A stretch of DNA of 64,000 bases from an uncultured Spirochaetales bacterium (GTDB taxonomy: Bacteria > Myxococcota_A > UBA9160 > SMWR01), in contig CAZZFT010000008.1 in the NCBI GenBank assembly GCA_964653555.1, positions 10,467 to 74,466 of the forward strand, read 5' to 3'. Position 1 is the first letter of the stretch; every line of letters starts with the position of its first letter. Made by a program: the position numbers and the translations under genes. The notes beneath the pieces were generated by a model that searched no databases, was not told the DNA's origin, and saw nothing but the letters and a program-made list of their open reading frames with translations. Shown piece by piece: positions 4,241 through 20,401 of the stretch.

Positions 4241-4257
4241 TTGGCACGAAAGATGCG
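4241..4257 (+). promoter_or_regulatory. Candidate sigma54 (-24/-12) promoter upstream of the Pcm fusion gene
   Basis: TTGGCACGAAAGATGCG: perfect TTGGCACG -24 box, GC at the canonical +12 spacing (ATGC instead of TTGC). Lies 13 nt before GTG 4270 and 43 nt before ATG 4300. Confidence 0.35.
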
Positions 4258-4269
4258 TTGCACGAACCC

Positions 4270-6270
4270 GTGCAGGACACGGTTGCAGAGCGGGATCAGA
4301 TGGTGCGCGACCATCTCGCCGCGCGCGGGATCCGTGAGCCGTCCGTACTGGATGCGTTTCGCGCCGTTCCCCGCGAGGCATTCCTGCCCCCGGAGCTGGG
4401 GGAGTTCGCGTACCAGGACTCGCCCCTGCCGATCGAGAAGGGCCAGACGATCTCCCAGCCCTACATCGTGGCGCTGATGACCGCCGCGCTTCGCGTGCAG
4501 CCCGGGGACGTCGTGCTCGAGATCGGCACCGGCTCGGGCTACGCCGCGGCGATCCTCGGCCGGATCGCCCGCAGCGTCTACACCGTCGAGCGTCACGAGG
4601 AGCTGGCCGACCTCGCCGCGCGTCGCCTCGCCGAGCTGGGCTTCGACAACGTCTCGGTCCGCCACGGCGACGGATCCCTCGGCTGGCCCGAGCACGCGCC
4701 CTACGACGCGATCGCGGTCGCCGCCGGGGGGCCCGGTGTGCCGCGCGCGCTGCTCGACCAGCTGGCGCCGGGCGGCAGGCTGGTGATGCCCGTGGGCGAG
4801 GGGCGCGAGCTCCAGAAGCTGGTGCGCGTCACCCGCCAGCCCGACGGCAGCTTCGCCAGCGAGGACCTGAGCGACGTCCGCTTCGTGCCCCTGATCGGCG
4901 CCCAGGGCTGGGAGGTCGAGGAGCCCTGGGAGGGACGCGCCGCCCGGACGCCGTCCCGACCCGCCACCGTCGCGCATCTGGTCTGCGAGCAGGCACTGCC
5001 CTTCGACGAGATCGAGGGCCACGATCTCGGCTCGCTGCTCGAGCGGATCGGCGATGCGCGCGTGGTGGCGATCGGCGAGGCGAGCCACGGGACCTCCGAG
5101 TTCTACCGGATGCGCGCCGAGATCACGAAGGCCCTGATCCGCTCGCGCGGCTTCGACCTGGTCGCCGTCGAGGCGGACTGGCCCGACGCCGCCGCCGTTG
5201 ACCGCTGGGTGCACGACGCGCCGCCGCTCCCCGACGACACCGGGCGGATGCGCCCGTTCCAGCGCTTCCCCACCTGGATGTGGCGCAACCACGAGACGCT
5301 CGCCTTCGCCGGCTGGCTGCGCGAGCACAACGCAAAGACGCGCGGCGACCGCGCCGGGGTCTCGTTCCACGGCCTCGACCTCTACAGCCTGTTCACCTCG
5401 ATCCAGGCGGTGCTCCAGTTCCTCGACCGCGTCGATCCGGCGGCGGCGCGCGTGGCGCGCCAGCGCTACGGCTGCCTCACACCCTGGGAGAGCGATCCGG
5501 CCGCCTACGGCCACGCGGCCCTCACCGGCCGCTACCGGGTGTGCGAGCGTGAGGCGGTGGCGATGCTGCGCGAACTGATGGAGCGGCGCCTCGACTACGC
5601 CGCCCGCGATGGCGAGGCGGTCTTCGACGCGGTGCAGAACGCGCGGCTCATCGCCGACGCAGAGCGCTACTACCGCGCGATGTACTACGGCTCGAACGAG
5701 TCGTGGAACCTGCGCGACCGACACATGTTCGAGACGCTCCAGGCGCTGCTCGCCTTCCGCGGGCCCCAGGCGAAGGCGGTGCTCTGGGCGCACAACTCGC
5801 ACCTCGGCGACGCCTCGGCCACCGAGATGGGCCTGCGCGGCCAGCTCAACGTCGGACAGCTGTGTCGCGAGACCTTCGGCACCTCCGCCTTCCTGATCGG
5901 CTTCGGCACCGACCGCGGCACTGTCGCCGCGGCCGACGACTGGGACGGGCCGATGCGAGTGATGACCGTGCGACCGTCTCACCCGGAGAGCTACGAGCGC
6001 CTGTGCCACGAGAGCGGGGTGCCGGCCTTCTTCCTGCACCTGCGCGAGCCCGACCGCGAGGCGCTGCGCTACGAGCTCGAGCCGCCGCGTCTCGAGCGCG
6101 CGATCGGCGTCGTCTACCGCCCGCAGACCGAGCTGCAGAGCCACTACTTCCGCGCCAGTCTGCCGCGGCAGTTCGACGAGTACGTGTGGATCGACGAGAC
6201 CAGTGCAGTGCGGCCGGTGACGCCCGCCGACGGTCAGGCCTTGCCGCGGGTCCACCCGTTCGCGGGGTGA
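4270..6270 (+). CDS. Fusion protein: protein-L-isoaspartate O-methyltransferase (Pcm) N-terminal domain + erythromycin esterase/ChaN-like C-terminal domain
   Basis: In-frame part of ORF 3142..6270. Pcm motifs: ...RDQMVRDHLAARGI...VPREAFLP...GQTISQPYIVALM...VLEIGTGSGYAAA. These continue without a stop into ...VVAIGEASHGTSEFYRMRAEITKALI...WAHNSHLGDA (Ere-family motifs). Start is GTG 4270 or ATG 4300. Confidence 0.85.
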   Translation: MQDTVAERDQMVRDHLAARGIREPSVLDAFRAVPREAFLPPELGEFAYQDSPLPIEKGQTISQPYIVALMTAALRVQPGDVVLEIGTGSGYAAAILGRIARSVYTVERHEELADLAARRLAELGFDNVSVRHGDGSLGWPEHAPYDAIAVAAGGPGVPRALLDQLAPGGRLVMPVGEGRELQKLVRVTRQPDGSFASEDLSDVRFVPLIGAQGWEVEEPWEGRAARTPSRPATVAHLVCEQALPFDEIEGHDLGSLLERIGDARVVAIGEASHGTSEFYRMRAEITKALIRSRGFDLVAVEADWPDAAAVDRWVHDAPPLPDDTGRMRPFQRFPTWMWRNHETLAFAGWLREHNAKTRGDRAGVSFHGLDLYSLFTSIQAVLQFLDRVDPAAARVARQRYGCLTPWESDPAAYGHAALTGRYRVCEREAVAMLRELMERRLDYAARDGEAVFDAVQNARLIADAERYYRAMYYGSNESWNLRDRHMFETLQALLAFRGPQAKAVLWAHNSHLGDASATEMGLRGQLNVGQLCRETFGTSAFLIGFGTDRGTVAAADDWDGPMRVMTVRPSHPESYERLCHESGVPAFFLHLREPDREALRYELEPPRLERAIGVVYRPQTELQSHYFRASLPRQFDEYVWIDETSAVRPVTPADGQALPRVHPFAG

Positions 6271-6281
6271 AGGAGGGAGCC

Positions 6282-6776
6282 ATGGCGATCGCACCGGCGC
6301 TTCGGAAGATCCTCGACGGCGAGGACGTCGAGTACGAGGTCGTCCACCACCGTCCGGACACGTGGGCGCTGCGCACCGCCGTGGACACCGACACGCCGCC
6401 GGAGGCGTTCGCGAAGAGCGTCGTGGTCTGCATCGACGGCCGCTTCGCGGTCGCCCTGCTTCCGGCGACGCACTATCTGGCGCCCAGCCGCCTCGCGCGC
6501 GCGACCGGTGCCACGTCGGTGCGCCTGGCCACGGAGTCGGAGATGCGCGAGCGGATGCCGGGCTTCGAGGTGGGCGCCGCGCCGCCCTTCCCGGCGCTGT
6601 GCGGTCTGCCCATCTACGCGAGCCCGCTGCTCGCCCGCGACGAGCGCATCACCTTCAACGCCGGCACCCATCGCGACGCGCTGCGCATGCGCTGGTCCGA
6701 CTACGAGCGGCTCGCGAAGCCCGAGATGGCGCACCTCTCCCACCACGAGGAAGAGGAGACGGGCGCGTCGTCCTAG
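6282..6776 (+). CDS. YbaK/EbsC-like aminoacyl-tRNA editing (deacylase) domain protein
   Basis: ATG 6282 after AGGAGGGA SD: MAIAPALRKILDGEDVEYEVVHH...AKSVVVCIDGRFAVALLPATH...GAAPPFPAL...ITFNAGTH. Domain-level call only. Confidence 0.75.
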   Translation: MAIAPALRKILDGEDVEYEVVHHRPDTWALRTAVDTDTPPEAFAKSVVVCIDGRFAVALLPATHYLAPSRLARATGATSVRLATESEMRERMPGFEVGAAPPFPALCGLPIYASPLLARDERITFNAGTHRDALRMRWSDYERLAKPEMAHLSHHEEEETGASS

Positions 6777-6793: not shown

Positions 6794-8494
6794 ATGCCTC
6801 CGGAGACGCGGATCTCGGAGCGGACGGGACCGGAGCGGGAGCAGGCGGAGGCCGCGCGGGGAGTCCTGTTGCGCGCGAACGTCGCGGCGCCCGGCGAGTC
6901 GGCGCTCGCCGCCGTGGCGGAGCGCGTGGGTCGTGCGGTTGCCGAGGCCGAGCTCCCCGCTGAGCGCGCGGACTGGACGGCGCGCTTCGCGGCGGCACTG
7001 GTCGGGGAGCGCTTCTGGCCGAGCGTTCCGATCCTCTCGAACGCGGGTCGCGGCGGCTCGCTCGCGGCGTGCTTCGTGCTCGAGCCCGCGGACTCGCTCG
7101 ACTCGATCTACGAGACGCTGCGGCGCGCTGCGCGCATCCAGCAGGGATCGGGGGGCGTGGGCCTCGACCTGTCGCGGTTGCGGCCGCGCGGAGCGCCCAT
7201 CGCGCGCTCGGGAGGCGTCTCGCCCGGACCGGTTGCCTTCGCCCAGCTCGCCGCGCACTCGGCGCGCATCAACGCCCTGTCCGGACGCCGGGAGGGCGCG
7301 CACCTGGTGATCCTCGCCGACTCCCACCCCGACGTCCTCGCGTTCGTCGAGGCGGCGCGCGAGGGCGAGGCGCTGCGCGGCGCCGGACTCGCCGTGGCGA
7401 CGAGCGACGCCCTGCTCGCCGCGGCGCGCCGAGGCGCCGACCACGTGCTGCGCGATCCGCGCGGTGCGCCGGCCGGATCGATCCCGGCGCGGGAGCTGCT
7501 GTGGGCGATCGCCGCCGCGATCCGCGACACTGGAAACCCTACCCTGCTCTTCCTCGACGCGATCGCCGCCGGCGATCCCACTCCGCAGCTGGGCGTGCCG
7601 CGGGCCACCAATCCCTGCGGCGAGCAGCCGCTGCGCCCCGACGAGAGCTGCGTGCTGGGATCGCTGGCCCTGACGGCCTTCGCCGACGAGCGGGGCCGGG
7701 TCGATCTGGCGGCGCTCGGCGAAGCCGCGCGCCTGGCGGTGCGCTTCCTCGACGACGTGGTGGAGGTGACCGTCCATCCCGATGCCGCGTGCGCCGAGGC
7801 GGGGCGCCGCACGCGCAAGATCGGTCTCGGCGTGATGGGCTTCGCCGACCTGCTGCTCCTGCGCGGCGAGGCCTACGGGAGCGCGGCGTCGCGGCGCACC
7901 GCCGAGCGGGTGATCGCCTGCGTGGAGCGCGAGGCGCGCCGCGCCAGCGAGGAGCTCGCCACGCAGCGCGGGCCGTTTCCCGGCTTCGACGGGCCGGGGC
8001 CGCCGCGGCGCAACGCGAGCCTGCTGGCGATCGCCCCGACCGGCACCCTGCGGCTGCTGGCCGGGTGCAGCGGCGGGATCGAGCCCTGGATCGACCCGGT
8101 CGTGTCGGTTCGCACGCGCGATGGGGCGTCGCAGCGCTGGGTCGATCGCACGCTGCTCTCCTGGCTGGAGCGGCGCTCCGGCGATCCCGCGACGCTGCTC
8201 GACGCGATCGCCGCGAGATGCGCGGCCGAGCAACTGCCGGGGCTCGCCGCCGCCGAGCGGTCGCTGCTGCGGCGCGCTCACGAGATCCCCGCCGAGGAGC
8301 AGCTCGCGCTCCAGAGCCGCTTCCAGGCTCACGTCGACGGCGCCGTGGCGAAGACCGTGCACCTGTCCCAGGAGACCTCGACCGCTCGCATCGAGCAGCT
8401 GATCCACACGGCCCGGAGGCTCGGATGCAAAGGTGTGGCGTTCTGGCGCACTCCGGACGAGATCCCGGCCGCCTGCGTGCGCTGCGCGGCGTGA
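6794..8494 (+). CDS. nrdJ: Adenosylcobalamin-dependent (class II) ribonucleotide reductase
   Basis: Inner ATG 6794 of ORF 6362..8494. Motifs ILSNAGR...LAACFVL, IQQGSGGVGLDLSRLRP, TNPCGEQPL (thiyl-radical Cys loop), ESCVLGS, and a C-terminal Cys pair CVRC. Confidence 0.9.
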   Translation: MPPETRISERTGPEREQAEAARGVLLRANVAAPGESALAAVAERVGRAVAEAELPAERADWTARFAAALVGERFWPSVPILSNAGRGGSLAACFVLEPADSLDSIYETLRRAARIQQGSGGVGLDLSRLRPRGAPIARSGGVSPGPVAFAQLAAHSARINALSGRREGAHLVILADSHPDVLAFVEAAREGEALRGAGLAVATSDALLAAARRGADHVLRDPRGAPAGSIPARELLWAIAAAIRDTGNPTLLFLDAIAAGDPTPQLGVPRATNPCGEQPLRPDESCVLGSLALTAFADERGRVDLAALGEAARLAVRFLDDVVEVTVHPDAACAEAGRRTRKIGLGVMGFADLLLLRGEAYGSAASRRTAERVIACVEREARRASEELATQRGPFPGFDGPGPPRRNASLLAIAPTGTLRLLAGCSGGIEPWIDPVVSVRTRDGASQRWVDRTLLSWLERRSGDPATLLDAIAARCAAEQLPGLAAAERSLLRRAHEIPAEEQLALQSRFQAHVDGAVAKTVHLSQETSTARIEQLIHTARRLGCKGVAFWRTPDEIPAACVRCAA

Positions 8495-8507
8495 CGACCC
8501 CGCCCGC

Positions 8508-8526
8508 TGAGGCACGGAACCTGCAC
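8508..8526 (+). promoter_or_regulatory. Candidate sigma54 (-24/-12) promoter for the 8554-13066 operon (includes rtcB)
   Basis: TGAGGCACGGAACCTGCAC: GGCACG at -24, CTGCA at -12 with exact 12-nt GG-to-GC spacing. About 30 nt upstream of GTG 8554, whose SD is GGGAGGG. Confidence 0.35.
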
Positions 8527-8553
8527 TGTCGTTCCCCGGGAGGGACCCGAGAG

Positions 8554-9762
8554 GTGAGTGCGAGAGATGCGGCGGTGGACGAGGCCTGCCTGCTGATGGA
8601 GGCCTTCGCCGAGCGGACCGGGCTGGGCTCGGAGCGCGCGCCGCACCGCTATCTGTGGACGGACGCCTTCGCCGTCTGCAACGACCTCGCGCTGTGGCGC
8701 GCGACGAGAGCGGCGGGGCATCGGGAGCGGGCCCTCCAGCTGATCGAGCAGGTCCACCGGGTGCTCGGCCGCCATCGCCCGGACGACGCGCGGCGGGGCT
8801 GGATCAGCGGCCTCGGCGAGCGGGAGGGGGCGCTCCACCCCACGCGCGGCGGTCTGCGGATCGGCAAGCCGCTGCCCGAGCGTCCGGACGGCGCCCCCTT
8901 CGACGAGCGTCTCGAGTGGGATCGCGACGGCCAGTACTTCCACTACCTGACGCGCTGGATGCACGCCCTCGACCAGACCGCCCGCGCGACGCGCGACGCG
9001 CGCCTCAACACCTGGGCTCGCGAGCTCGCCGACGCGGCCCACCGCGCCTTCGTCTACGGCCCGCCCGGCCGACGCCAGATGGTGTGGAAGATGAGCATCG
9101 ACCTGTCGCGACCGCTGGTGCCGTCGATGGGACAGCACGACCCGCTGGACGGATGGATCACCTGCCTGCAGCTGCAGGCCACGGCCGATGCCCTGTCCGC
9201 GCCCGCAGAGCCGCGCCTCGACGATGCGTCGGCCGACTTCGCGCGCATGACCGAGGGGCGGAGCCTGGCGACGGCCGACCCGCTCGGCCTCGGCGGGCTG
9301 CTGATCGACGCCGGACTCGTCGCCCAGCTGATGGGGCAGGGCTCCCTGGCCGACGGTCTGCTGCTGGAGGCGCTGCTCGACGCGGCGCACGCGGGGCTCT
9401 CGCACTTCGCCCGGCGCGGCGATCTGCATCAGCCCGCCGCGCGCCGTCTGGCCTTCCGCGAGCTCGGCCTGGTGATCGGGCTCGCCGGTGTCGGTGGGAT
9501 CGCGCGGGCCCTCGAGCCGGCGAAGCTCGAGGAGGCGACCCGCGCTCGTCTCGTCGCCGAGCTCGACGCGCTCGCTCCCTACGCCGCGCTCGGCTCCCCG
9601 ATCGCCTCCTTCTGGCGCGACCCGGCTGCGCGGCGCGCGCCCTCCTGGTCGGCGCACCGCGACATCAACGACGTGATGCTCGCCGCCTGCCTGGTTCCCG
9701 AGGGCGTGCTGGCGCTGCGGCCCGCGCGCGAGGTACTGGCCGGTGCCCTTCGGGGCACGTGA
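8554..9762 (+). CDS. Conserved-looking hypothetical protein (helical repeat character), function unknown
   Basis: GTG 8554 within ORF 7069..9762: ...HRYLWTDAFAVCNDLALW...GWISGLGERE...GGLRIGKPLPERP...DGQYFHYLTRWMHALD... Composition is protein-like, unlike the ORF's upstream part. No family recognised. Confidence 0.7.
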   Translation: MSARDAAVDEACLLMEAFAERTGLGSERAPHRYLWTDAFAVCNDLALWRATRAAGHRERALQLIEQVHRVLGRHRPDDARRGWISGLGEREGALHPTRGGLRIGKPLPERPDGAPFDERLEWDRDGQYFHYLTRWMHALDQTARATRDARLNTWARELADAAHRAFVYGPPGRRQMVWKMSIDLSRPLVPSMGQHDPLDGWITCLQLQATADALSAPAEPRLDDASADFARMTEGRSLATADPLGLGGLLIDAGLVAQLMGQGSLADGLLLEALLDAAHAGLSHFARRGDLHQPAARRLAFRELGLVIGLAGVGGIARALEPAKLEEATRARLVAELDALAPYAALGSPIASFWRDPAARRAPSWSAHRDINDVMLAACLVPEGVLALRPAREVLAGALRGT

Positions 9763-9793
9763 GTTGCGAGACCGATTCGTGAAGGAGGACGCG

Positions 9794-10336
9794 ATGCAGG
9801 TGCAGTGGCATCACCCGGAGACGTTCACCGAGGCCGACCGGCAGACGGTGGAGGAGCGGATCGAGGCGCTGGCGGGAGACCACGGCGACCTGATCGACGT
9901 GAGGATCAGCGCGCGCACGACGGAGCATCACCGCCACGGCGCTCAGGAGGTGCGGGTCGTGTGCGCCGCGCGGGGCAAGGAGATCGTCGCCGCCCGGACC
10001 CGGCCCGATGCGGCGCTGGCGCTCCAGGAGGCGGTCGACGTGTTCGAGCGCGAGGTGTGGCGGATGCGCCACCGGCGCACCCAGCAGCGCCGCGAGCGTC
10101 CGGCGGAGCCGCCCGAGCTCGGCGTGGTGGACGAGATCCGGCGCGAGGAGGGGTGCGGATTCGTGATCACCGACGCGGGAGAGCGCGTCTACTTCCACCG
10201 AAACGCGGTCGGCCAGGGGCTCGCCTTCGACGGGCTCGTGGACGGGCAGCGGGTGGCGCTCAACATCGAGGCCGGCGCGAAGGGCCTCCAGGCGACCTTC
10301 ATCGCCGCCCCGCCGCCCGACGCACCGGGGCCGTGA
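9794..10336 (+). CDS. Fusion: HPF/RaiA (sigma54-modulation / ribosome hibernation) -like N-domain + cold-shock (CspA/S1-like OB) C-domain
   Basis: ATG 9794 after GAAGGAGGA. N-terminus: MQVQWHH...IEALAGDHGDLIDVRISART...EVRVVCAARGKEIVAARTRPDAALALQEAVDVFEREVWRMR (HPF-like beta-alpha-beta3-alpha pattern). C-terminus: GVVDEIRREEGCGFVITDAGERVYFHRNAV...DGQRVALNIEAGAKGLQA (CSD pattern). Confidence 0.8.
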   Translation: MQVQWHHPETFTEADRQTVEERIEALAGDHGDLIDVRISARTTEHHRHGAQEVRVVCAARGKEIVAARTRPDAALALQEAVDVFEREVWRMRHRRTQQRRERPAEPPELGVVDEIRREEGCGFVITDAGERVYFHRNAVGQGLAFDGLVDGQRVALNIEAGAKGLQATFIAAPPPDAPGP

Positions 10337-10365
10337 CCCATGGCGGCATTCGAGGAGGAGCAGGG

Positions 10366-11166
10366 ATGACGAGCCGGGTTCGCGACTGGATGACACCGGA
10401 CCCGGTCGCCGTGGCGGAGGACGCCGCGGCGCTCGAGGCCTTCGATCGCATGGTCGATCGGGGCATCCGCCACCTGCCGGTGATCGACGCGCAGCGGCGG
10501 GTGATCGGGATCCTGAGCATCGACGACCTGCGCGGCGCCTTCCCCTTCGAGGTCAGCGCCGTGCGTCCCCTCGCTCCCGAGGAGCGCGACCAGGCGCTCG
10601 ACTACCGCGTGAGCGACGTCATGACCTGGGCTCCGCGCACCACGACGGCGGATCTCTCCCTCGAGGAGGCCGCGCGCACGCTGGCGGAGCACCGGATCGG
10701 CTGCTTGCCGGTGGTGGACGCGGAGGAGCGCCTGACGGGCATCCTCTCGGAGACCGACGCCCTGCGCGCACTCGACGCGCTGCTGCGGCGCGAGCCGCCG
10801 CCGCCGAAACCGGCGGGTGCCGGGGAGGGGCTGGTCGAGGCGCTGTGGGCCGAACGCGAGCGACTCGTCGAGCAGCTCGCGAAGTGGCAGGACACCGAGC
10901 GCGTTCTCTCCGCCGACATCGGGGACGAGCCCCGCGACCGGGCGGAGCGCGCCACCGACGAGCGCGGCGTCGCCGACCTCGAGCCGCTCACCGCCCGGGC
11001 GGCCCGGCGCCTGCGCGCGATCGAGCGGGCGCTCGAAGCGGCCGAGCACGGACGCCTGGGGATCTGCGAGCGCTGTCAGGGGCGGATCCCCGCGACCCGG
11101 CTGCGCGCGCTGCCCGAGGCGACGCTGTGCGTGCGCTGCGCCCGCACGGCGGCCGAGGCAGGGTGA
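10366..11166 (+). CDS. Fusion: CBS-domain pair + coiled coil + DksA/TraR C4 zinc finger
   Basis: ATG 10366 within ORF 9805..11166. Two CBS repeats (RHLPVIDAQRRVIGILSIDDL; IGCLPVVDAEERLTGILSETDAL). The C-terminus GICERCQGRIPATRLRALPEATLCVRCA is the CxxC-N17-CxxC DksA/TraR finger. Confidence 0.85.
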   Translation: MTSRVRDWMTPDPVAVAEDAAALEAFDRMVDRGIRHLPVIDAQRRVIGILSIDDLRGAFPFEVSAVRPLAPEERDQALDYRVSDVMTWAPRTTTADLSLEEAARTLAEHRIGCLPVVDAEERLTGILSETDALRALDALLRREPPPPKPAGAGEGLVEALWAERERLVEQLAKWQDTERVLSADIGDEPRDRAERATDERGVADLEPLTARAARRLRAIERALEAAEHGRLGICERCQGRIPATRLRALPEATLCVRCARTAAEAG

Positions 11167-12629
11167 CAGGCTTGGCGATTCCCGCCGGGCTGCGCGCGAT
11201 CGCGCCGGATCTGTGGGAGATCGGTCCGGGCTTCCGGCCCGGAATGCGCGTGCCGGTGCACATCTTCGCCAGCGAGAAGCTTCTCGGCGAGATGGACGAC
11301 ACGGTGTTCGCCCAGGCCGCGAACGTGGCGACGCTGCCGGGGATCGTGGGTGCGAGCCTGTGCATGCCCGACGCCCACTGGGGCTACGGGTTCCCGATCG
11401 GCGGCGTTGCGGCGATGGATCCCGACACCGGCGTGATCTCGCCCGGCGGCATCGGCTTCGACATCAACTGTGGCATGCGGCTGGTTCGCACGAACCTCGG
11501 CTGGCACGAGGTGCGTCCGCGGATCGCCGAGCTCGTCGACGCTCTGGCCGAGCGCGTCCCCGCCGGCGTGGGGTCGGAGGGCTTCGTGCGACTCGACGCC
11601 GCGTCGCTGGCGCGGGTGATGCTAGGCGGCGCACGCTGGGCCGTGGAGCACGGCTTCGGGGACGAGCGCGACCTCGAGCGCACCGAGTCCGGCGGCTGCT
11701 TTCCCGGCGCCGATCCCGCCCAGGTGAGCGAGCGCGCCCTGCGCCGCGGCGAGAGTCAGCTCGGCACACTCGGATCGGGCAACCACTATCTCGAGGTGCA
11801 GATCCTCCCGCCTGACGGGATCCTCGACGAACCCCTCGCGCGGGCCTTCGGCCTCGACCGCCCGGGCCAGGTGGCGGTGATGTTCCACTGCGGCAGCCGC
11901 GGCTTCGGTCACCAGGTGGCCACCGACTACCTCGAGACGTTCCTGGACGCGATGCCGAGCCGCTACGGTCTCCCGGTGATCGACCGGGAGCTGGCGTGCG
12001 CGCCGTTCCGATCGCCCGACGGCCAGTCCTACTTCGCGGCGATGGGCTGCGCGGCCAACATGGCCTTCGCCAACCGCCAGGTGATCCTGCACCGGATCCG
12101 CGGGGTTTTCGCCGACGTGTTCGGCCAGAGTCCGGGAGCGCTCGGCCTCGAGACCGTCTACGACGTCGCCCACAACACGGCGAAGCTCGAGCGTCACCGC
12201 GTGGACGGTCGGGAGCGCGAGCTGCTGGTGCACCGCAAGGGCGCCACCCGCGCCTTTCCGCCCGGCCACCCGGAGCTGCCCGCGTGCTACCGCGAAACCG
12301 GCCAGCCGGTGATCGTCGGCGGGAGCATGGAGACCGGCTCCTATGTGCTCGCGGGCGTTGCGCAGGGCGCCGCGAGCTTCTTCAGCAGCGCCCACGGAAG
12401 CGGGCGGACGATGAGCAGGACGCGGGCTCGCAAGCTCGTGCGCGGGGAGGTGCTGCGGCAGCGGATGGCCGAGCGCGGGATCGAGGTGCGCGCGGCCTCC
12501 CTGCGCGGCCTCGCCGAGGAGGCGGGCTTCGCCTACAAGAGTGTGGACGAGGTGGCGCAGGCGACGGAAGTGGCCGGGATCTCCCGCCGCGTCGCGCGGC
12601 TGCTTCCCGTCGGCAACGTGAAGGGATGA
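11163..12629 (+). CDS. rtcB: RNA-splicing ligase RtcB (3'-phosphate/5'-OH RNA ligase)
   Basis: GTG 11163 overlaps the upstream stop (GTGA). Motifs MPDAHWGYGFPIGG, GGIGFDINCG, GSGNHYLEVQ, HCGSRGFGHQ, HRKGATRA, SAHGSGR. Confidence 0.95.
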   Translation: MTGLAIPAGLRAIAPDLWEIGPGFRPGMRVPVHIFASEKLLGEMDDTVFAQAANVATLPGIVGASLCMPDAHWGYGFPIGGVAAMDPDTGVISPGGIGFDINCGMRLVRTNLGWHEVRPRIAELVDALAERVPAGVGSEGFVRLDAASLARVMLGGARWAVEHGFGDERDLERTESGGCFPGADPAQVSERALRRGESQLGTLGSGNHYLEVQILPPDGILDEPLARAFGLDRPGQVAVMFHCGSRGFGHQVATDYLETFLDAMPSRYGLPVIDRELACAPFRSPDGQSYFAAMGCAANMAFANRQVILHRIRGVFADVFGQSPGALGLETVYDVAHNTAKLERHRVDGRERELLVHRKGATRAFPPGHPELPACYRETGQPVIVGGSMETGSYVLAGVAQGAASFFSSAHGSGRTMSRTRARKLVRGEVLRQRMAERGIEVRAASLRGLAEEAGFAYKSVDEVAQATEVAGISRRVARLLPVGNVKG

Positions 12630-13066
12630 AGGCCAGCGCGGTCGAGTACGAGTTCCGCGACGCGGTGACGAGCGACCTCGCCGTCGAGCTCCGGGCTCCG
12701 ACGTTGGAGGGCGTGTTCACCGCACTCGCCGACGCTCTGGTGGCGGCGACTCTCGAGCATCCCGAGGCGCTGCGCACGGCACGGAGACGAAGCGTCGAGC
12801 TGGACGCCCCCGATCTCGAGCGGCTGCTCCTGCGCTTCGCCAACGAGCTGATCTTCCTGCGCGACGCCGAGCGCCTCGTGCTGCGCGCCGAGCGCGTCGC
12901 GGTGCACGCGGACGGCGTCGCTCGCCTGTCCGCCGAGCTCGTCGGGGAGCCGATCGACCGGGACCGCCACGGTGTCGGGGCCGACGTCAAGGCTGCGACG
13001 GCACACGGCCTCGCCCTCGGCCGGGTCGGTGAGGGCTGGCGAGCCCGCATGACCTTCGACGTGTGA
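12626..13066 (+). CDS. Archease (RtcB activator)
   Basis: ATG 12626 overlaps the rtcB stop (ATGA). MKASAVEYEFRDAVTSDLAVELRAPTLEGVF...VKAATAHGLAL...WRARMTFDV matches the archease N- and C-terminal conserved blocks. Confidence 0.88.
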   Translation: MKASAVEYEFRDAVTSDLAVELRAPTLEGVFTALADALVAATLEHPEALRTARRRSVELDAPDLERLLLRFANELIFLRDAERLVLRAERVAVHADGVARLSAELVGEPIDRDRHGVGADVKAATAHGLALGRVGEGWRARMTFDV

Positions 13067-13156
13067 GCGCTGAGCTCCGCTCTGGGTCGCACGTCCTCAT
13101 CGCTGGGGCTGTCGGCCCCGCGCGAGTCACGGAGCCGCGGTCCGCGGGGGTGCGGA

Positions 13157-13173
13157 CTGGCACGCGGGATGCA
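13157..13173 (+). promoter_or_regulatory. Candidate sigma54 (-24/-12) promoter upstream of hsp20
   Basis: CTGGCACGCGGGATGCA: perfect CTGGCACG, GC at the exact 12-nt spacing (ATGCA vs TTGCA). About 57 nt upstream of ATG 13230, in a 163-nt intergenic gap. Confidence 0.45.
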
Positions 13174-13229
13174 GCCTGTCGGGCAGGGCGACGGGGTTGC
13201 CGGCGCCGGAGACGAGGGGGGAGCGGGCG

Positions 13230-13724
13230 ATGTCGGCACGAAATCTCCTGCCCTGGAACTGGGGGACGAAGAGGGTCCCGGTGCGCGGCGAGGAGCTGCC
13301 GCTCCGCTCGCTGCACCGGGAGATGAACCGCTTCTTCGGCGACTTCTCGCGTGACTTCGGCCTGTCGGTCTGGGGCGGCGAGAGCGGGGCGTTCGCGCCC
13401 GACATCGATGTGGAGGAGGACGACGACGCGATCCGCGTCGACGTCGAGCTTCCCGGTGTGGACGAGAAGGACGTGGACGTCTCGCTGCGCGACGACCAGC
13501 TGGTCGTGCGCGGCGAGAAGCGCGAGGAGCGCACGGAGAAGAGGCGGGGCGAGCGCTGGACGGAGCGGCGCTTCGGCGCCTTCGTCCGCGCGATCCCGCT
13601 GCCCTGCGAGGTGGACCGCGAGCGGGTGGAGGCGTCCTTCCGCCGGGGCGTGCTGCACGTGGACCTGCCGAAGACCGCCGAGGCGCGCCGCGAGGGTCGG
13701 CGGATCGAGGTCCGGGCGGGCTAG
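13230..13724 (+). CDS. Hsp20/alpha-crystallin family small heat-shock protein
   Basis: Inner ATG 13230 (MSARNLLPWNW...). Alpha-crystallin core: PDIDVEEDDDAIRVDVELPGVDEKDVDVSL...LVVRGEK...FGAFVRAIPLP...ASFRRGVLHVDLPK. Confidence 0.92.
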   Translation: MSARNLLPWNWGTKRVPVRGEELPLRSLHREMNRFFGDFSRDFGLSVWGGESGAFAPDIDVEEDDDAIRVDVELPGVDEKDVDVSLRDDQLVVRGEKREERTEKRRGERWTERRFGAFVRAIPLPCEVDRERVEASFRRGVLHVDLPKTAEARREGRRIEVRAG

Positions 13725-13743
13725 CGAGAGGGAGGAGGACACG

Positions 13744-13992
13744 ATGATTCCGGAACCCGAGGACGAGCGCGATCGGGGCGACGTGTGCAGCGTGTGCGGG
13801 GCGCGCGTGGCGGCGGACACGGACCGGGGCTTTGCCTTCGGGACCGAGAACGTGCTGTGCTTCGGTTGCGCCGAGCTGCGCGGGGGACGTTTCGACGCCC
13901 GGCGCGACGTATGGGATCCGCCGCCCGACCTCTCGGACGTTCCGGACGAGGCCTACGGCGCGGCCCCCCACGAGATTCGACGGGGTCGCTGA
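13744..13992 (+). CDS. Small Zn-ribbon-like hypothetical protein (82 aa)
   Basis: ATG 13744 after GGGAGGAGGA SD, 19 nt after the hsp20 stop. MIPEPEDERDRGDVCSVCGARV...NVLCFGCAELRGG gives a CxxC...CxxC arrangement. Confidence 0.6.
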   Translation: MIPEPEDERDRGDVCSVCGARVAADTDRGFAFGTENVLCFGCAELRGGRFDARRDVWDPPPDLSDVPDEAYGAAPHEIRRGR

Positions 13993-14010
13993 CCTCGCGG
14001 GAGCAGGATA

Positions 14011-14337
14011 TTGCGGGTGAACAGAGACGAGGCGGTCCGCCGCCAGCTGGAGAGTCGACTCGCGCAGCTGCTGGCGCGGGCCGGGAAGATCGAGGCGGAC
14101 CTGCGCAAGCCCGGGGACCGGGACTGGCAGGAGCGCGCGACCGAGCGCGCCAACGACGAGGTGCTGGAGCGGCTCGACGCCGCGGAACGCGGCGAGGTGC
14201 AGGAGATCCGCGCCGCCCTCGCGCGTCTCGAGGACGGGCGCTATGGGGTGTGCGAGCGCTGCCGCGGCGCGATCTCAGCCGAGCGGCTCTCGGCGCTCCC
14301 CGCGACCCAGACCTGCGTTGCCTGCGCGCCGGCCTAG
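14011..14337 (+). CDS. TraR/DksA family C4 zinc-finger protein
   Basis: TTG 14011 (GTG 14017 alternative). Coiled-coil N-terminus, then GVCERCRGAISAERLSALPATQTCVACA finger. Confidence 0.85.
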   Translation: MRVNRDEAVRRQLESRLAQLLARAGKIEADLRKPGDRDWQERATERANDEVLERLDAAERGEVQEIRAALARLEDGRYGVCERCRGAISAERLSALPATQTCVACAPA

Positions 14338-14349
14338 CCCGGGCGGGAG

Positions 14350-14406
14350 CCCGCCCTCGCTCGCCTGCGGGTCGCTGCGCGTCGGCCGACTCTCGAGTCG
14401 GCCTGC
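14350..14406. repeat. REP-like intergenic palindromic element, copy A
   Basis: cccgccCtcgctcgcctgcggGtcgcTgcgcgtcggccgactctcgagtcggcctGc. About 93% identical to copy C (38510..38566). Core hairpin ggccgactc-tc/ga-gagtcggcc at 14384..14403. Sits between convergent stops at 14337 and 14406. Confidence 0.6.
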
Positions 14407-15656
14407 TAGCCCCCGCCACCCGGCCAGAAGGTCAACAGCCCGGTCCCCAGCGCCAAGGCCGTTCCGAACAGCGCCACCACCCAGCGGCGCAGCTCGGCGT
14501 GCCCGAGCGCGCAGGCGGCGACGCCCTTGAAGGCCAGGTTCGCCATCACGCCGGTCAGCACCAGGCGCCAGCCGATCGCGGGCTCCACGCGACCGAGCTC
14601 GAGCATCCGTGCGATCGACAGCGTGATGGCGTCCACGTCGGTCAGGCCGGAGAGCGTCGCCACCGCGTACAGGCCGCGCTCGCCCAGCCATTGGCGGGCC
14701 GCGGCGACGCCCAGCAGCACGGCCGCGTAGAGGAGCCCGAAGCCGACCGCCGCACGCAGGTCCGAGGGCGCGTGGTCGAGCCGCGCCATCGGCAGCCGAT
14801 CGCGCGTGAGGACGTATACGATCGCGCACAGCCCCGCCATGAAGGCGAACATCGCGATCAGCGGGCGAGCCAGCACGCCGAACACGTCCGGGGCCACCAG
14901 CGCCGCGAGCAGCAGCATGCGCGGGAGTACCACGGTCGAGGAAAGGGCGAGCACGAGCGCCGTGGCCGGCACGCGGCGGGGCGCGTCGCGCGTGCGCCGC
15001 GCATAGCTCACGGTGGTGGCGGTGCTCGAGATCAGCCCTCCGAGCACGCCCGCGGCGATCGTGCCGAGGTTCGGTCCGACCAGCCTGTGGGCGAGATAGG
15101 CGCCCAGGCTGATGCTCACGATCAGCACCACCATCGACCAGATCTGGAACGGATTCAGCACCTGGAAGGGGCCGAAGCTGCGGTTCGGCAGTGCGGGCAG
15201 GATGACGAGTCCGATCAGCACGAGCTGCATGACCGAGCGCACCTCGTCCTCGCCGATGCGCCGCACGAACTCGTGGAGGGGGCGCTTCCAGTGCAGCAGC
15301 ACCGCGACGGCGCCGGACACGGCAACCGCGCTGACGGCCTGACCCCGGGCGACCACGGCGCCGACGACGAACATCACCAGCAGCGCCACCTCGGTCGTGA
15401 TGCCCGTCTCGGGATTCTCGCCGGAGTGGCTCTCCCGGCTTCCGCTCCACACGATCGCCGCCAGGGCGAGGATCCCCGCGGCCAGGAGCCAGCCCCCGAA
15501 GGCCGTGGTGAGCTGGGCGGTCAGCGTGCCCAGCAGCGTGACGAGCGGGAAGGTGCGGATCCCCGCCAGCCGCTTCGCCGCCCATTCGCGCTGGAAGCCC
15601 ACCAGGAGACCGAGGCCCAGCGACAGGGCCAGGTGATAGGTTTGGTTCCAATCCAC
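14406..15656 (-). CDS. MgtC/SapB-family + DUF4010-type integral membrane protein
   Basis: GTG 15656. MDWNQTYHLALSLGLGLLVGFQREW...GIRTFPLV (MgtC N-terminal signature), followed by about 10 further hydrophobic segments. Confidence 0.88.
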   Translation of the reverse strand: MDWNQTYHLALSLGLGLLVGFQREWAAKRLAGIRTFPLVTLLGTLTAQLTTAFGGWLLAAGILALAAIVWSGSRESHSGENPETGITTEVALLVMFVVGAVVARGQAVSAVAVSGAVAVLLHWKRPLHEFVRRIGEDEVRSVMQLVLIGLVILPALPNRSFGPFQVLNPFQIWSMVVLIVSISLGAYLAHRLVGPNLGTIAAGVLGGLISSTATTVSYARRTRDAPRRVPATALVLALSSTVVLPRMLLLAALVAPDVFGVLARPLIAMFAFMAGLCAIVYVLTRDRLPMARLDHAPSDLRAAVGFGLLYAAVLLGVAAARQWLGERGLYAVATLSGLTDVDAITLSIARMLELGRVEPAIGWRLVLTGVMANLAFKGVAACALGHAELRRWVVALFGTALALGTGLLTFWPGGGG

Positions 15657-15693
15657 GGCAGGGGGAAGCTACACCCTCGTCACGAGCTGGCGA

Positions 15694-16200
15694 TCAGTCG
15701 CGCACCCAGCGCACGCGCACCAGATTCTCGCGCTCGGCCGAGGTGGGCGGCTGCTCGAGCCGTCCCGAGTAGGCCTTGTGGAGCGCGCGGCCCAGCGCCT
15801 GGACGAGCTTGGCGTCGGTCGTCTCGGCGACGAAGCCCTGGGCGGTCTCCTCGATCGCGATCAGGCGCTTGAGCGGGTGGCTCGCGCGCTCGCGCTCCTC
15901 CACGTGGCGCATCAGTCGGATCAGCTCATCCCGGTGCGTCAGCGCGAAGGTCCCCTCCGCGCGCAGCTCGCCGGCCGGATAGCGGTCGGTGATCCGCTGG
16001 CAGGCCGGACATACCTTCCGGTAGGCGTCGGCCGGCGCGGGCTCCCAGGTCCAGCGCCCCTGTCGATAGCTCGCGCCGCAATCGGGACAGGCGGCGAGCT
16101 CCGGATGCTTCTCGACGTCTCCGCCCGCCGGCTCGGGCGTCCGCCGAAGCGGGCGGGGCGCGGCGGACGAGGAGTGCGTGGGGGAGCGCTTGCGACGCAT
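15694..16200 (-). CDS. Zn-ribbon (CxxC x2) NMD3-like / BCAM0308-like hypothetical protein
   Basis: ATG 16200 with GGAGG SD. ...CPDCGASYRQGRWTW...VCPACQRITDRYPAGEL...HPLKRLIAIEE... Family name is from memory and tentative. Confidence 0.72.
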   Translation of the reverse strand: MRRKRSPTHSSSAAPRPLRRTPEPAGGDVEKHPELAACPDCGASYRQGRWTWEPAPADAYRKVCPACQRITDRYPAGELRAEGTFALTHRDELIRLMRHVEERERASHPLKRLIAIEETAQGFVAETTDAKLVQALGRALHKAYSGRLEQPPTSAERENLVRVRWVRD

Positions 16201-16300
16201 AGTGCGAAACCTCCTTCGCAGCGAACGAGGCGTCCCGCCTCGATGTGTCGCGAGTTGGGACGCGATGGGACACCGCCCACTCGCCCGGCGGGCCGCGCCA

Positions 16301-16349
16301 GGAGCCGACTCGGAGAGTCGGCCGACGCGCGGCGAGCGACGGCGAGCTC
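16301..16349. repeat. REP-like intergenic palindromic element, copy B (inverted orientation)
   Basis: The reverse complement gagctcgccgtcgctcgccgcgcgtcggccgactctccgagtcggctcc aligns with copies A and C (shared ctcgccgcgcgtcggccgactct(c)cgagtcggc). Lies just 3' of the minus-strand gene ending at 16358. Confidence 0.5.
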
Positions 16350-16357
16350 CTGCCGGA

Positions 16358-16735
16358 CTAGGCGGCCTTCTTCTTGCGCCGCACCTTCGGCGGCGGCTGG
16401 ATCGCCTTCTCGAGCTGACGCAGCAGCTGGACCGTGGCGCGCCGAGCGCGCAGACTCTGCCGCCGCCACTCGCGCTCGCCCTGGGCCTCGAACTGGCCGA
16501 GGCGGTGGCTGGCCTCGCGCAGCACGCGCGCAGCCCGACGGCGCGCGTCGCGCCCGTCCTTCTCGATCCGCTTCTCGAGCTGAACGAGGCCGCGGCGCAT
16601 GCGGCGCGAGAAGTCGCGCAGCGTCGGCGGAAGCTCCGCCTCGAGCTGGCTCAGCGCCGGAGCGCGTTTGCCCGAGCGCTGGGTCTTCTTCTTGCGGCGG
16701 ACGGCTTTCTTCGAAGATCGGGATGCGGCTGCCAC
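16358..16735 (-). CDS. Highly basic Lys/Arg-rich coiled-coil protein (125 aa), function unknown
   Basis: GTG 16735 preceded by AGGAGGAA at optimal spacing. KKAVRRKKKTQRSGKR at the N-terminus, KVRRKKKAA at the C-terminus, heptad-like central region. Confidence 0.65.
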   Translation of the reverse strand: MAAASRSSKKAVRRKKKTQRSGKRAPALSQLEAELPPTLRDFSRRMRRGLVQLEKRIEKDGRDARRRAARVLREASHRLGQFEAQGEREWRRQSLRARRATVQLLRQLEKAIQPPPKVRRKKKAA

Positions 16736-16760
16736 AGTGGGTTCCTCCTGCTCGGGAGTT

Positions 16761-16777
16761 CTGCAAACCGCATGCCG
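16761..16777 (-). promoter_or_regulatory. Candidate sigma54-like (-24/-12) element upstream of the basic protein gene
   Basis: Reverse strand CGGCATGCGGTTTGCAG: GGCAT (one mismatch) and TTGCA at correct spacing, in the 43-nt gap between the ftsH stop and GTG 16735. Confidence 0.3.
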
Positions 16778-16778
16778 T

Positions 16779-19651: not shown

Positions 19652-19716
19652 CACGGTGCCTGAGACGGATATAGCGCACCGGACGCTCCCGGCGATCCGC
19701 GCACCCACCGGCTGCG

Positions 19717-20247
19717 TCAGGGCTCCGCGACGGGTCGCGAGGCGCCGGCCGCAGACGGCTCGGCGGTCTTCGCCGCGTCCGGGGCAGAGCCCTTCGCCTC
19801 GGTGTAGGCCGACGCCGCGCCGTAGCGATAGACGAGCTGGCCCCCGAGATGCCCCGCCGCGACCGCGGCCGCGAGCACGATCGCCATCGCCGCCGTCGCG
19901 CTGATCCGCCCCGCGCGCCCGAGCCCACCGGCGAACAGGCCGGTCGCCGTCAGCAGCGCGGTCGCGGCGGCCAGACCGAGGAAGCGCTCGGCGGCCTCCT
20001 CGTGCTCCTCGATGTGCCGCTCCGCGACGACGCGCTCCACGCGCTCCTCCTCGTGGTGGCCCGTCTCCAACGCGGCCCACGCCGACAAGGCGAGCGCGAA
20101 CTGGAACACGACGACCGCCGCCCACGACCGCGCGGGCAGCAGGCCGCGCTGGATCGCGATCAGGAACCCGATCCCGATCAGGGGCATCAGGACGGCGAGC
20201 GCCACGGGCAGATGTACGACGGCCGGGTGGAGCGGATCGGGAAGCAT
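19717..20247 (-). CDS. DUF2231-like membrane protein
   Basis: ATG 20247 after AAGGAGG. MLPDPLHPAVVHLPVALAVLMPLIG... with 4 hydrophobic helices and a His/Glu-rich loop. Confidence 0.72.
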   Translation of the reverse strand: MLPDPLHPAVVHLPVALAVLMPLIGIGFLIAIQRGLLPARSWAAVVVFQFALALSAWAALETGHHEEERVERVVAERHIEEHEEAAERFLGLAAATALLTATGLFAGGLGRAGRISATAAMAIVLAAAVAAGHLGGQLVYRYGAASAYTEAKGSAPDAAKTAEPSAAGASRPVAEP

Positions 20248-20275
20248 GGTGGATGGCACCTCCTTTGCCGGAAGT

Positions 20276-20293
20276 CTTGCACGGCGCGTGCCG
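20276..20293 (-). promoter_or_regulatory. Candidate sigma54-like (-24/-12) element upstream of the DUF2231-like gene
   Basis: Reverse strand CGGCACGCGCCGTGCAAG: GGCACG plus GTGCA at correct spacing, about 30 nt upstream of ATG 20247. Confidence 0.25.
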
Positions 20294-20401
20294 GATTCGC
20301 GCCGCTGGCCGAGCGCGGCCGAGCGGCGGGAGGCCACTTCGCGCTGGGCCGACCCGCCCCGAGGCGTCGGGGCCCTGGGGTGCCGAGCCCCAGGCCGGTC
20401 C

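Follow-up and report, generated by a model that had tools for sequence, protein, structure and literature searches.

A sigma-54-associated gene island with ribosome-hibernation, RNA-repair and DksA-type genes in an uncultured Myxococcota bacterium

The HPFcold, CBS::DksA, RtcB and archease genes

A 64,000-nucleotide (nt) stretch of contig CAZZFT010000008.1 (GenBank assembly GCA_964653555.1; referred to below as the window), from an uncultured soil myxobacterium-like Myxococcota bacterium, was analyzed around a cluster of genes for ribosome hibernation, RNA repair, and transcription factors at 8508-14337. The window has a G+C content of 73% and a uniform composition. As an earlier examination of the DNA without database searches (the sequence-only reading) had stated, eight co-oriented genes were found in these 5.8 kb, all on the + strand. 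They encode a 402-amino-acid (aa) conserved protein, a fusion of HPF with a cold-shock domain (CSD), a fusion of a CBS pair with a DksA-type zinc finger, the RNA ligase RtcB, the RtcB activator archease, a small heat-shock protein (Hsp20), an 82-aa zinc-ribbon protein, and a stand-alone DksA-like protein (Table 1). Pfam, NCBIfam, and PDB searches confirmed the domains that had been assigned, including those of both fusions, and the tight or overlapping junctions were confirmed on reading the sequence. The 402-aa gene and HPF::CSD are separated by 31 nt (9762 to 9794) and HPF::CSD and CBS::DksA by 29 nt (10336 to 10366), with GGAGG-type ribosome-binding sites in both gaps. CBS::DksA overlaps RtcB by GTGA at 11163, and RtcB overlaps archease by ATGA at 12626. 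Further downstream, Hsp20 is followed by the zinc-ribbon gene after 19 nt (13724 to 13744) and the latter by the DksA-like gene after 18 nt (13992 to 14011). Intrinsic terminators and sigma-70 promoters were sought in 8300-14600 and none were found, as expected at 73% G+C. An Rfam scan of the whole window at the gathering threshold returned no family, and no Y-RNA or other RNA near rtcB. A mobile-element origin of the cluster was rejected, given the uniform composition and the chromosomal housekeeping neighbors (the mreB and rodA region, and polA).

Residues 3-95 of HPF::CSD matched PF02482 (26.1 bits against a cutoff of 23.7) and residues 110-170 matched PF00313 (29.3 bits against a cutoff of 27), and TIGR00741 (yfiA) was matched at 23.6 bits, under its cutoff. 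The family profile also matched HPF and RaiA chains, as well as CspA and CspB structures at 1e-8 to 1e-11. The profile aligned over both domains with the HPFcold protein of Coxiella burnetii (9t0z_9; E 3.2e-12; profile positions 19-172, chain residues 23-180), so the fusion is not an undescribed one but belongs to a known class (PMC13392368; bioRxiv 2025.11.04.686544). Chain 9 of PDB 9T0Z is C. burnetii CBU_0020, which was named HPFcold; its N-domain occupies the 30S decoding center, and through the CSD it holds and protects the anti-Shine-Dalgarno 3' end of 16S rRNA (Nat Commun 2026, PMC13392368). Such HPF::CSD chimeras were also listed, with variable genomic location, in a preprint on the evolution of hibernation factors (Chan et al., bioRxiv 2025.11.04.686544). 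RtcB is mentioned in neither of these two papers. A total of 335 matches of ~180 aa were obtained for the Myxococcota clade, nearly all from uncultured Myxococcota or "Deltaproteobacteria" metagenome-assembled genomes (MAGs), and by sequence this clade forms a new branch of the class in a new genomic context. The consensus of its CSD is YGF...VYFH, in which G122, F123, Y133, F134, and H135 were invariant. By analogy with the Coxiella protein, HPFcold of the window is predicted to bind the 30S decoding center and the anti-Shine-Dalgarno end.

The family of the CBS::DksA fusion comprised 397 matches in two size classes (~266 and ~371 aa) from the same kind of MAGs, and its homologues are annotated generically or wrongly, e.g., as "AcuB." The C-terminal half aligned with residues 70-142 of Escherichia coli DksA (PDB 1TJL chain). 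The family consensus at the coiled-coil tip was EPRDxADRA, corresponding to the DxxDxA motif, and in the C4 finger (PF01258) C234, C237, and C258 were invariant, with C255 present in at least 90% of 24 members. An AlphaFold2 (AF2) model with a predicted local distance difference test score (pLDDT) of 88.5 contained a Bateman module, an antiparallel pair of 36-residue helices (152-187 and 192-227, with the tip at 188-191; pLDDT mostly >80), and a zinc finger. The top Foldseek matches were AMP/ADP-bound AcuB and CBSX2 (E 1e-11 to 1e-12). Homology and the model together point to a putative nucleotide-sensing RNA-polymerase secondary-channel factor. No description pairing CBS with DksA was found in the literature search.

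RtcB of the window is of the long archaeal/eukaryal type and aligned end-to-end with Pyrococcus horikoshii RtcB (1uc2; E 2e-162). Residues D65, H67, D95, C98, N202, H203, E206, H234, H329, N330, and H404 (P. horikoshii numbering), which cover the metal, GTP, and nucleophile positions, were identical in the two proteins. The GTG start at 11163 is supported by this homology, which begins at residue 10. Among 80 metagenome loci centered on RtcB, archease was present on the same contig in 59, mostly directly downstream. At one related locus (L004; related loci are denoted by L numbers), RtcB and archease were called as a single 631-aa product with both Pfam domains (8608-10503), which reflects either a fused gene or an overlooked stop codon. 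The sequence-only reading had seen neither RtcA nor RtcR in the window, and this was upheld; tblastn with the RtcA of L069 gave no match in the window, and no RTC Pfam domain was present in the scanned cluster and flanking genes. L069, a related metagenome contig, carries an RtcA gene (15324-16361) 5 kb from its CBS::DksA gene, so RtcA is present in the lineage though missing from the window.

Sigma-54 elements and transcription units

The window was scanned with the sigma-54 consensus TGGCAC-N5-TTGC (10 scored positions), and expected numbers were obtained from shuffles. At two or fewer mismatches, 35 sites were found and 41 were expected. At one or no mismatch, seven sites were found against 1.86 expected, all seven within the first 22 kb, and five of the seven, at 1703, 4242, 9753, 13158, and 22012, lay 2-98 nt upstream of a co-oriented gene start.

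A strong site at 9753-9767, absent from the sequence-only reading, spans the TGA stop of the 402-aa gene, 27 nt ahead of the HPF::CSD ATG. Of 44 HPFcold loci, 24 had a site of at least 8/10 in the 260 nt preceding the gene, where ~4.5 were expected (P ~5e-13, a binomial value that overstates independence since the loci are phylogenetic relatives), and 14 had one of at least 9/10. In most HPFcold loci without a site, the gene lay directly downstream of another cluster gene. L068, the closest relative available (CBS::DksA 75% identical), has an identical 14-nt core (GGCACGTGAGTTGC) at this promoter, with diverged flanks. The site is thus a supported, sequence-predicted promoter for HPF::CSD, CBS::DksA, RtcB, and archease.

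The second element that had been read from the sequence, at 13157, was recovered as a 9/10 site at 13158-13172 with a footprint conserved in L068, where the block GACTGGCACGC-GGATGCAG is kept before the zinc-ribbon gene. Hsp20 genes in L008, L010, and L044 likewise lie behind sites of at least 9/10. This second site is supported, again by motif and conservation, as the candidate promoter of the Hsp20, 82-aa zinc-ribbon, and DksA-like genes. L068 retains the HPF, CBS::DksA, zinc-ribbon, and DksA-like genes with the same two promoters.

Canonical GG (-24)/GC (-12) spacing together with orthologous conservation was found for the 9753 and 13158 sites, but not for the 8510-8524 match, which corresponds to the other sigma-54 element of the sequence-only reading (8508). 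With two mismatches (8/10) this match is at chance level and carries no weight by itself. Its position is not conserved, and it is absent from the homologous junctions: in L004, 20 nt separate the RNR (ribonucleotide reductase) and 402-aa genes, and the 402-aa genes of L074 and L075 extend over the stop codon of the PCMT fusion gene. The 8510-8524 match is therefore probably non-functional.

The 402-aa gene had been placed first in the cluster, but its partners elsewhere proved to be PCMT and RNR rather than RtcB. In the window, the PCMT::esterase, YbaK-like, RNR, and 402-aa genes form a close-packed array (gaps of 11, 17, and 59 nt) headed by the 4242 site. In L004 the 402-aa gene follows RNR as in the window, but HPF::CSD and RtcB are 5 kb away from it and on the opposite strand; the 402-aa gene precedes PCMT in L076 (6001-8289) and overlaps the stop of the PCMT::erythromycin-esterase fusion gene in L074 (4034-7227). 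As the 402-aa gene ends this upstream operon and promoters lie at 9753 and 13158, the finding spans three predicted transcription units. Of the single coupled unit proposed earlier, the coupling of HPF::CSD, CBS::DksA, RtcB, and archease fits the junctions, whereas an eight-gene unit starting at 8508 is not supported.

To place these sites in a wider context, 772 kb of related loci were surveyed, and 104 strong sigma-54 sites were found. Of these, 41 (one of them invalidly labelled) were followed within 300 nt by a gene of a family that the island around the cluster also contains, including HPFcold (14 sites), the CBS pair (8 sites, in 8 related loci), Hsp20 (4), CBS::DksA (3), PCMT (3), and others. 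PCMT-family genes downstream of strong sites were also found in L026 and L029, and the LOG-like gene of L068 is preceded by a site equivalent to that at 22012. A GroEL/Cpn60-like paralogue of ~540 aa, not counted among the 41, lies behind a 9-10/10 site next to HPFcold in L004 (4726-6342), L013, L015, L024, and L033. Archaeal-type S-adenosylmethionine synthetase and CarS-like genes also occur in these neighborhoods (L004, L035).

No sigma-54 activator was found to be encoded in the window, with no GAFTGA or ESELFG in six frames and no tblastn match to two NtrC-type activators. In L029 an NtrC-type REC-AAA-HTH activator is encoded directly upstream of HPFcold, and an activator 55% identical to it lies 4.5 kb from HPFcold in L013.

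A perfect consensus, TGGCACctcctTTGC, was located at 20254 (+), in the 154 nt that separate the start of the DUF2231 gene from the stop of the beta-CASP remnant. On the + strand it is followed by no coding open reading frame (ORF), and the next ~125 nt form three hairpins (-82 kcal/mol). For 20254-20402 the fold z was only -2.1, and nothing similar was found in related loci. The segment may be a sigma-54-dependent small or antisense RNA.

Linkage in related genomes and the surrounding island

Co-occurrence of the fusion genes with rtcB-archease across genomes, which the sequence-only reading had left to be examined, was observed in a sample of 43 species-representative genome loci of HPFcold, with neighbors counted within 10 kb. 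RtcB was present in 14 of the 43, CBS::DksA in ~10, and the CBS pair in 10. PolX or PolX-like genes were present in 11, directly downstream in L006, L017, L019, L021, and L046, and the zinc-ribbon, Hsp20, RNR, and YbaK-like genes in 4 each. At least one island family was found in 34 of the 43 loci. In related loci, the four operon genes lay side by side in several co-oriented orders: HPFcold, RtcB, archease (L004, L027, L083, L091); RtcB, archease, HPFcold (L009); RtcB, archease, CBS::DksA, HPFcold (L031); RtcB, archease, CBS::DksA (L072); and CBS::DksA, HPFcold (L028, L034). The conserved linkage of HPFcold, CBS::DksA, and RtcB was not described in the literature searched, which did not extend to the paper of Burroughs & Aravind (2016) on RtcB neighborhoods.

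By gene content and sites, the 5.8 kb form the center of a ~22-kb sigma-54-rich, putative stress/dormancy island that extends to both sides (Table 1). In the Hsp20 unit, ATG at 13230 is more probably the Hsp20 start than TTG at 13197. The zinc-ribbon family comprised 169 representative clusters, mostly of 65-85 aa, with C15, C18, C39, C42, G47-G48, and W57 invariant, and its gene was found near HPFcold, CBS::DksA, or RtcB in L015, L020, L024, L033, L068, L069, and L100. The stand-alone DksA-like protein matched NCBIfam DksA models below their cutoffs, and its gene follows the zinc-ribbon gene in L068 too. The inverted repeat downstream of it is a weak candidate for a bidirectional terminator, as no T-run follows it and the terminator scan was empty.

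In the upstream operon, the PCMT::erythromycin-esterase fusion is unusual and is conserved in L074/L075, directly upstream of the 402-aa family. The YbaK-like gene was found near HPFcold again in L023, L030, L044, and L047, and RNR near HPFcold or RtcB in L004, L020, L025, L029, L031, and L078. The 402-aa protein had no Pfam, NCBIfam, or PDB sequence match. Its family has at least 8000 homologues (57-71% identity) in Myxococcota, Acidobacteria, and Gammaproteobacteria. The AF2 model (pLDDT 81, pTM 0.84) was an all-helical (alpha/alpha)6 toroid, for which Foldseek gave only weak matches (GH76, cellobiose 2-epimerase, GH105), and the protein may be an uncharacterized protein-repair or small-molecule enzyme.

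On the minus strand, an array starting at the 22012 site converges on the Hsp20 unit and runs through LOG-like, beta-CASP remnant, DUF2231, PolX-like, FtsH, small basic protein, BCAM0308-family, and MgtC/DUF4010 genes, in the same order as in L068. The PolX-like gene (18710-19654) encodes HHH domains only, with no polymerase or PHP match in Pfam. The MgtC/DUF4010 gene was found again in L029, L076, and L077. The BCAM0308-family gene lies directly upstream of RtcB in L026 and L085 and after CBS::DksA in L071. In the distant taxa L108, L118, L119, and L122 (58-60% G+C), 2-3 kb separate it from RtcB. PCMT, S1-domain, and BON-domain proteins are also encoded beside RtcB-archease in L119. The BCAM0308-family protein may be a ribosome- or RNA-binding partner. 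Related loci add universal stress proteins (USPs), a P-type ATPase, a BON-domain protein, and RtcA.

The beta-CASP/metallo-beta-lactamase RNase gene of the array (20402-21021, minus strand) consists of a 126-aa N-terminal and an ~86-aa C-terminal piece in different frames, with ~240 aa missing, and is either a pseudogene or an assembly error; the syntenic gene of L068 (17419-18774) is intact and encodes 451 aa. ARAGORN called a 94-nt tRNA-Pro(CGG) at 29429-29522 (minus strand) within a strongly coding ORF (28269-29738, minus strand), and this call is probably a false positive.

Table 1. Genes and sequence elements of the cluster and the surrounding island in the window
Feature	Position	Strand	Basis or context
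Sigma-54 promoter GGGCACGTGAGTTGC (9/10)	9753-9767	+	Upstream of HPF::CSD
HPF::CSD fusion (HPFcold)	9794-10336	+	Pfam PF02482 and PF00313
CBS-pair::DksA fusion	10366-11166	+	Pfam CBS x2, 106 bits; zf-dksA_traR, 33 bits
RtcB, 3'-phosphate/5'-hydroxyl RNA ligase, long archaeal/eukaryal type	11163-12629	+	Pfam RtcB PF01139, 543 bits, full length
Archease, RtcB activator	12626-13066	+	Pfam PF01951, 100.5 bits; P. horikoshii 4n2p, E 1.3e-13
Sigma-54 promoter TGGCACGCGGGATGC (9/10)	13158-13172	+	Upstream of Hsp20
Hsp20/alpha-crystallin small heat-shock protein	13230-13724	+	Pfam HSP20, 78 bits
82-aa four-cysteine zinc-ribbon protein	13744-13992	+	No Pfam match
Stand-alone DksA-like protein, 106-108 aa	14011-14337	+	Pfam DksA-like_N, 64 bits; zf-dksA_traR, 30 bits
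9-bp GC-rich inverted repeat	14381-14403		Between convergent DksA-like and MgtC genes; read from sequence
CBS-pair protein	1168-1659	-	Pfam CBS x2, E 1.7e-26
Sigma-54-type element CGGCACGCAAGTTGC (9/10)	1703-1717	-	44 nt upstream of CBS-pair gene
Sigma-54-type element TGGCACGAAAGATGC (9/10)	4242-4256	+	Heads PCMT::esterase, YbaK-like, RNR, 402-aa array
PCMT::erythromycin-esterase-like fusion	4258-6270	+	Pfam PCMT, 213 bits; Erythro_esteras, 457 bits
YbaK-like aminoacyl-tRNA editing domain protein	6282-6776	+	Pfam tRNA_edit, 70.7 bits
Class II-type ribonucleotide reductase	6794-8494	+	Pfam Ribonuc_red_lgC, 291 bits
Weak sigma-54-like match AGGCACGGAACCTGC (8/10)	8510-8524	+	The element earlier placed at 8508
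402-aa conserved protein	8554-9762	+	Last gene of upstream operon
MgtC/DUF4010 membrane protein	14406-15656	-	Pfam; last gene of convergent minus-strand array
BCAM0308-family (NMD3-like zinc-ribbon) protein	15694-16200	-	NCBIfam NF040826, 152 bits against a cutoff of 100
Remainder of minus-strand array	16358-21914	-	Pfam: small basic protein, FtsH, PolX-like HHH, DUF2231, beta-CASP remnant, LOG-like
Sigma-54-type element GGGCACCCAGCTTGC	22012-22026	-	98 nt before LOG-like gene, head of minus-strand array

Interpretation and comparison with known systems

The cluster is a real, conserved hibernation-plus-repair module, each part of which is of a known kind. We consider it probable that the module belongs to a dormancy island read by sigma-54, in which three transcription units combine ribosome hibernation, RNA repair, and retuning of transcription. 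A stress signal, which judging from the similar gene content of other systems may be a shortage of oxygen or energy or the onset of a non-growing state, would act on an NtrC-type response-regulator activator whose gene lies beyond the window. The units would then be transcribed together by sigma-54 RNA polymerase. HPFcold would park 70S ribosomes, with its N-domain in the decoding center and its CSD clamping the anti-Shine-Dalgarno 3' end of 16S rRNA. Archease-activated RtcB would reseal breaks with 3'-phosphate (or 2',3'-cyclic phosphate) and 5'-OH ends in the rRNA and tRNA of the idle translation apparatus. The coiled-coil tip of CBS::DksA would enter the RNA-polymerase secondary channel and tune transcription according to the adenine nucleotide presumed to be bound by the CBS pair, and the stand-alone DksA-like protein would perhaps also retune RNA polymerase. 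Hsp20 would hold unfolded proteins, and together with the FtsH, PCMT, RNR, and PolX-type proteins it may look after proteins and DNA.

Several observations weigh against this interpretation. In the window itself, the CSD has C121 at the first RNP1-like aromatic position, where 18 other aligned members have Y or F, and the CBS::DksA tip reads D-R-A-E-R-A (DxxExA), with Glu where E. coli DksA has D74. The HPFcold orthologue of L068 (9616-9954) is a 112-aa HPF domain without the CSD behind the same sigma-54 promoter, and by sequence it represents a natural loss of that domain. The homologous site of L068 also has no RtcB, archease, or Hsp20, and the linkage is therefore modular rather than obligatory, with RtcB-archease and Hsp20 behaving as cassettes. 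Nine of the 43 HPFcold loci had no partner gene at all, and HPFcold was present in only 4 of ~20 loci of close RtcB orthologues, many on short contigs. An 8-mer enrichment over the 210 nt upstream of the 104 strong sites gave nothing convincing as an activator motif after multiple testing (the best 8-mer had P 1.6e-6, in 6 sequences). The relatedness of the loci behind the promoter counts belongs here too, as do the operon boundaries, which we infer from spacing and promoter motifs only.

The main competitor, to which we give about half the weight and which we regard as possible but doubtful, is that the genes share a sigma-54 stress regulon and nothing further, so that HPFcold, CBS::DksA, and RtcB-archease act independently and have no common substrate. 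The neighborhood is fluid in order and orientation, and it takes in the unrelated PCMT, GroEL-like, PolX, FtsH, USP, and RNR genes; moreover, the operon of L068 persists without RtcB-archease, and from the RtcB side HPFcold is a minority neighbor. On the other hand, the four genes occur in at least five co-oriented, directly adjacent permutations, beyond what one regulon needs, and the activities of both HPFcold and RtcB have been documented at the 16S 3' region or the decoding center (PMC13392368, PMC5416887, PMC13166195). E. coli RtcB re-ligates the 16S 3' terminus removed by MazF (PMC5416887), and RtcB2 with PrfH, an A-site binder, repairs 16S rRNA cut by colicin E3 (PMC9223846, PMC13166195). 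These precedents make a direct connection between HPFcold and RtcB plausible, and we infer that the two proteins may cooperate physically.

A more specific version, in which ribosomes are parked and mended while transcription is throttled, seems unlikely to us when taken as a whole. It would have HPFcold present or retain cleaved 16S 3' ends, and possibly A-site-proximal breaks, for RtcB, as PrfH does for RtcB2. CBS::DksA would be a new class of secondary-channel factor, gated through its Bateman module by an adenylate or alarmone and lowering rRNA transcription while ribosomes are parked, and an NtrC-type two-component system would switch the module on through sigma-54.

Somewhat harder still to sustain is the model of the sequence-only reading, a single coupled eight-gene supercluster transcribed from the 8508 element with a second element at 13157. 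The common orientation of all genes, their short gaps, and the GG-N10-GC match at 8510 speak for it, but that match is at chance level and missing from homologous junctions, members of the 402-aa family accompany PCMT and RNR at a distance from HPFcold and RtcB or on the opposite strand, and the 402-aa gene is separated from HPFcold by a conserved promoter.

In vitro, DNA with 3'-phosphate ends can serve as a substrate of bacterial RtcB enzymes. RtcB could accordingly seal or cap such ends with PolX-type enzymes during dormancy, and the 11 of 43 HPFcold loci with PolX or PolX-like genes within 10 kb, as well as the PolX-like gene of the window, fit this idea. We find it very unlikely, as RtcB is operonic with archease and a ribosome factor rather than with PolX, the PolX-like protein of the window has HHH domains only, and the documented cellular substrates of RtcB are RNAs (PMC5416887, PMC7790460). 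Least credible of all is a conflict or anti-toxin system in which RtcB and its accessories mend ribotoxin or phage-nuclease damage in the manner of RtcB2-PrfH, for although that system pairs an A-site binder with RtcB on colicin-E3-cut 16S rRNA and HPFcold is also an A-site binder, PADLOC returned only a weak generic CSD match, which gives no defence-system membership, the vicinity contains no toxin, nuclease, or mobile-element genes, the sequence is uniform in base composition, and the neighbors are housekeeping-stress genes.

Ribosome hibernation and RNA repair have so far been studied as separate stress responses. The operon described here joins a putative clamp of the 16S 3' end, a ligase known to re-join that end, and a putative nucleotide-sensing DksA, and hence offers a concrete, testable link between ribosome protection, repair, and reduced synthesis during dormancy. 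In addition, it adds a candidate sigma-54-dependent RtcB operon without RtcR or RtcA, and an undescribed CBS::DksA family of ~400 sequence clusters. Further, it adds conserved proteins without assigned function that lie alongside dormancy-type genes across phyla, namely the PCMT-linked 402-aa toroid, the 82-aa zinc ribbon, and the RtcB-linked BCAM0308/NMD3-like protein.

The DosR regulon of Mycobacterium tuberculosis includes the HPF-like gene Rv0079 and the CBS protein Rv2626c, and Rv2626c was among the PDB matches of the CBS search. The lxa locus of Burkholderia cenocepacia, which has been compared with that regulon, contains alpha-crystallin/Hsp20, class II RNR, "lysine decarboxylase," USPs, and a cation-transporting ATPase (PMC3721108). 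Similarly, Hsp20, class II RNR, and a LOG-type "lysine decarboxylase" are encoded in the island, and USPs and a P-type ATPase in related loci. CBS proteins are likewise part of the island's gene set. The BCAM0308 link to lxa lies only in the NCBIfam short name lxa_BCAM0308, and neither BCAM0308 nor CBS proteins are mentioned in the lxa paper (PMC3721108). In contrast to lxa and DosR, control would be by sigma-54 rather than of FNR or DosR type, and RtcB-archease, HPFcold, and CBS::DksA were not reported for lxa (PMC3721108). The resemblance to both systems is thus an analogy of gene content only.

Like Coxiella HPFcold (PDB 9T0Z/9TZE), the protein of the window has PF02482, a short linker, and PF00313 in ~180 aa, and the FGF and YFH RNP-like motifs of the CSD are kept in the family. 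It differs in belonging to a distinct Myxococcota clade, ~60-76% identical internally and only distantly similar to Coxiella, and in its conserved sigma-54 promoter and its frequent operonic association with RtcB-archease and CBS::DksA, which are mentioned in neither of the two papers on such fusions (PMC13392368; bioRxiv 2025.11.04.686544). CBS::DksA has in common with the DksA/TraR family of secondary-channel factors a C4 zinc finger, an antiparallel coiled coil in the AF2 model, and, in its family consensus, DxxDxA (DxxExA in the window copy), but a CBS pair replaces the N-terminal region of E. coli DksA, and a stand-alone DksA-like gene lies 2.8 kb downstream.

As in the RtcR-dependent rtcBA operon of E. 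coli and Salmonella (PMC7790460), the RtcB gene lies behind a sigma-54 promoter and would be stress-inducible by design. Unlike in rtcBA, neither RtcA nor a CARF-domain RtcR is encoded in the window, RtcB is of the long type and comes with archease, relatives offer an NtrC-type REC-AAA-HTH protein as the candidate activator, and a hibernation factor and a DksA fusion are added members. The adjacent, overlapping rtcB and archease genes resemble the RtcB-archease operon of archaea and bacteria (Desai et al., 2014, PMC3973293), except that in the window the two genes form a cassette within a hibernation/transcription-factor operon and are missing at the homologous site of L068. Compared with RtcB2-PrfH, in which PrfH is a release-factor homologue acting on toxin-cut translating ribosomes, HPFcold is a hibernation factor and stands in no toxin context, but in both systems an RtcB ligase is co-encoded with a binder of the ribosomal A site or decoding center.

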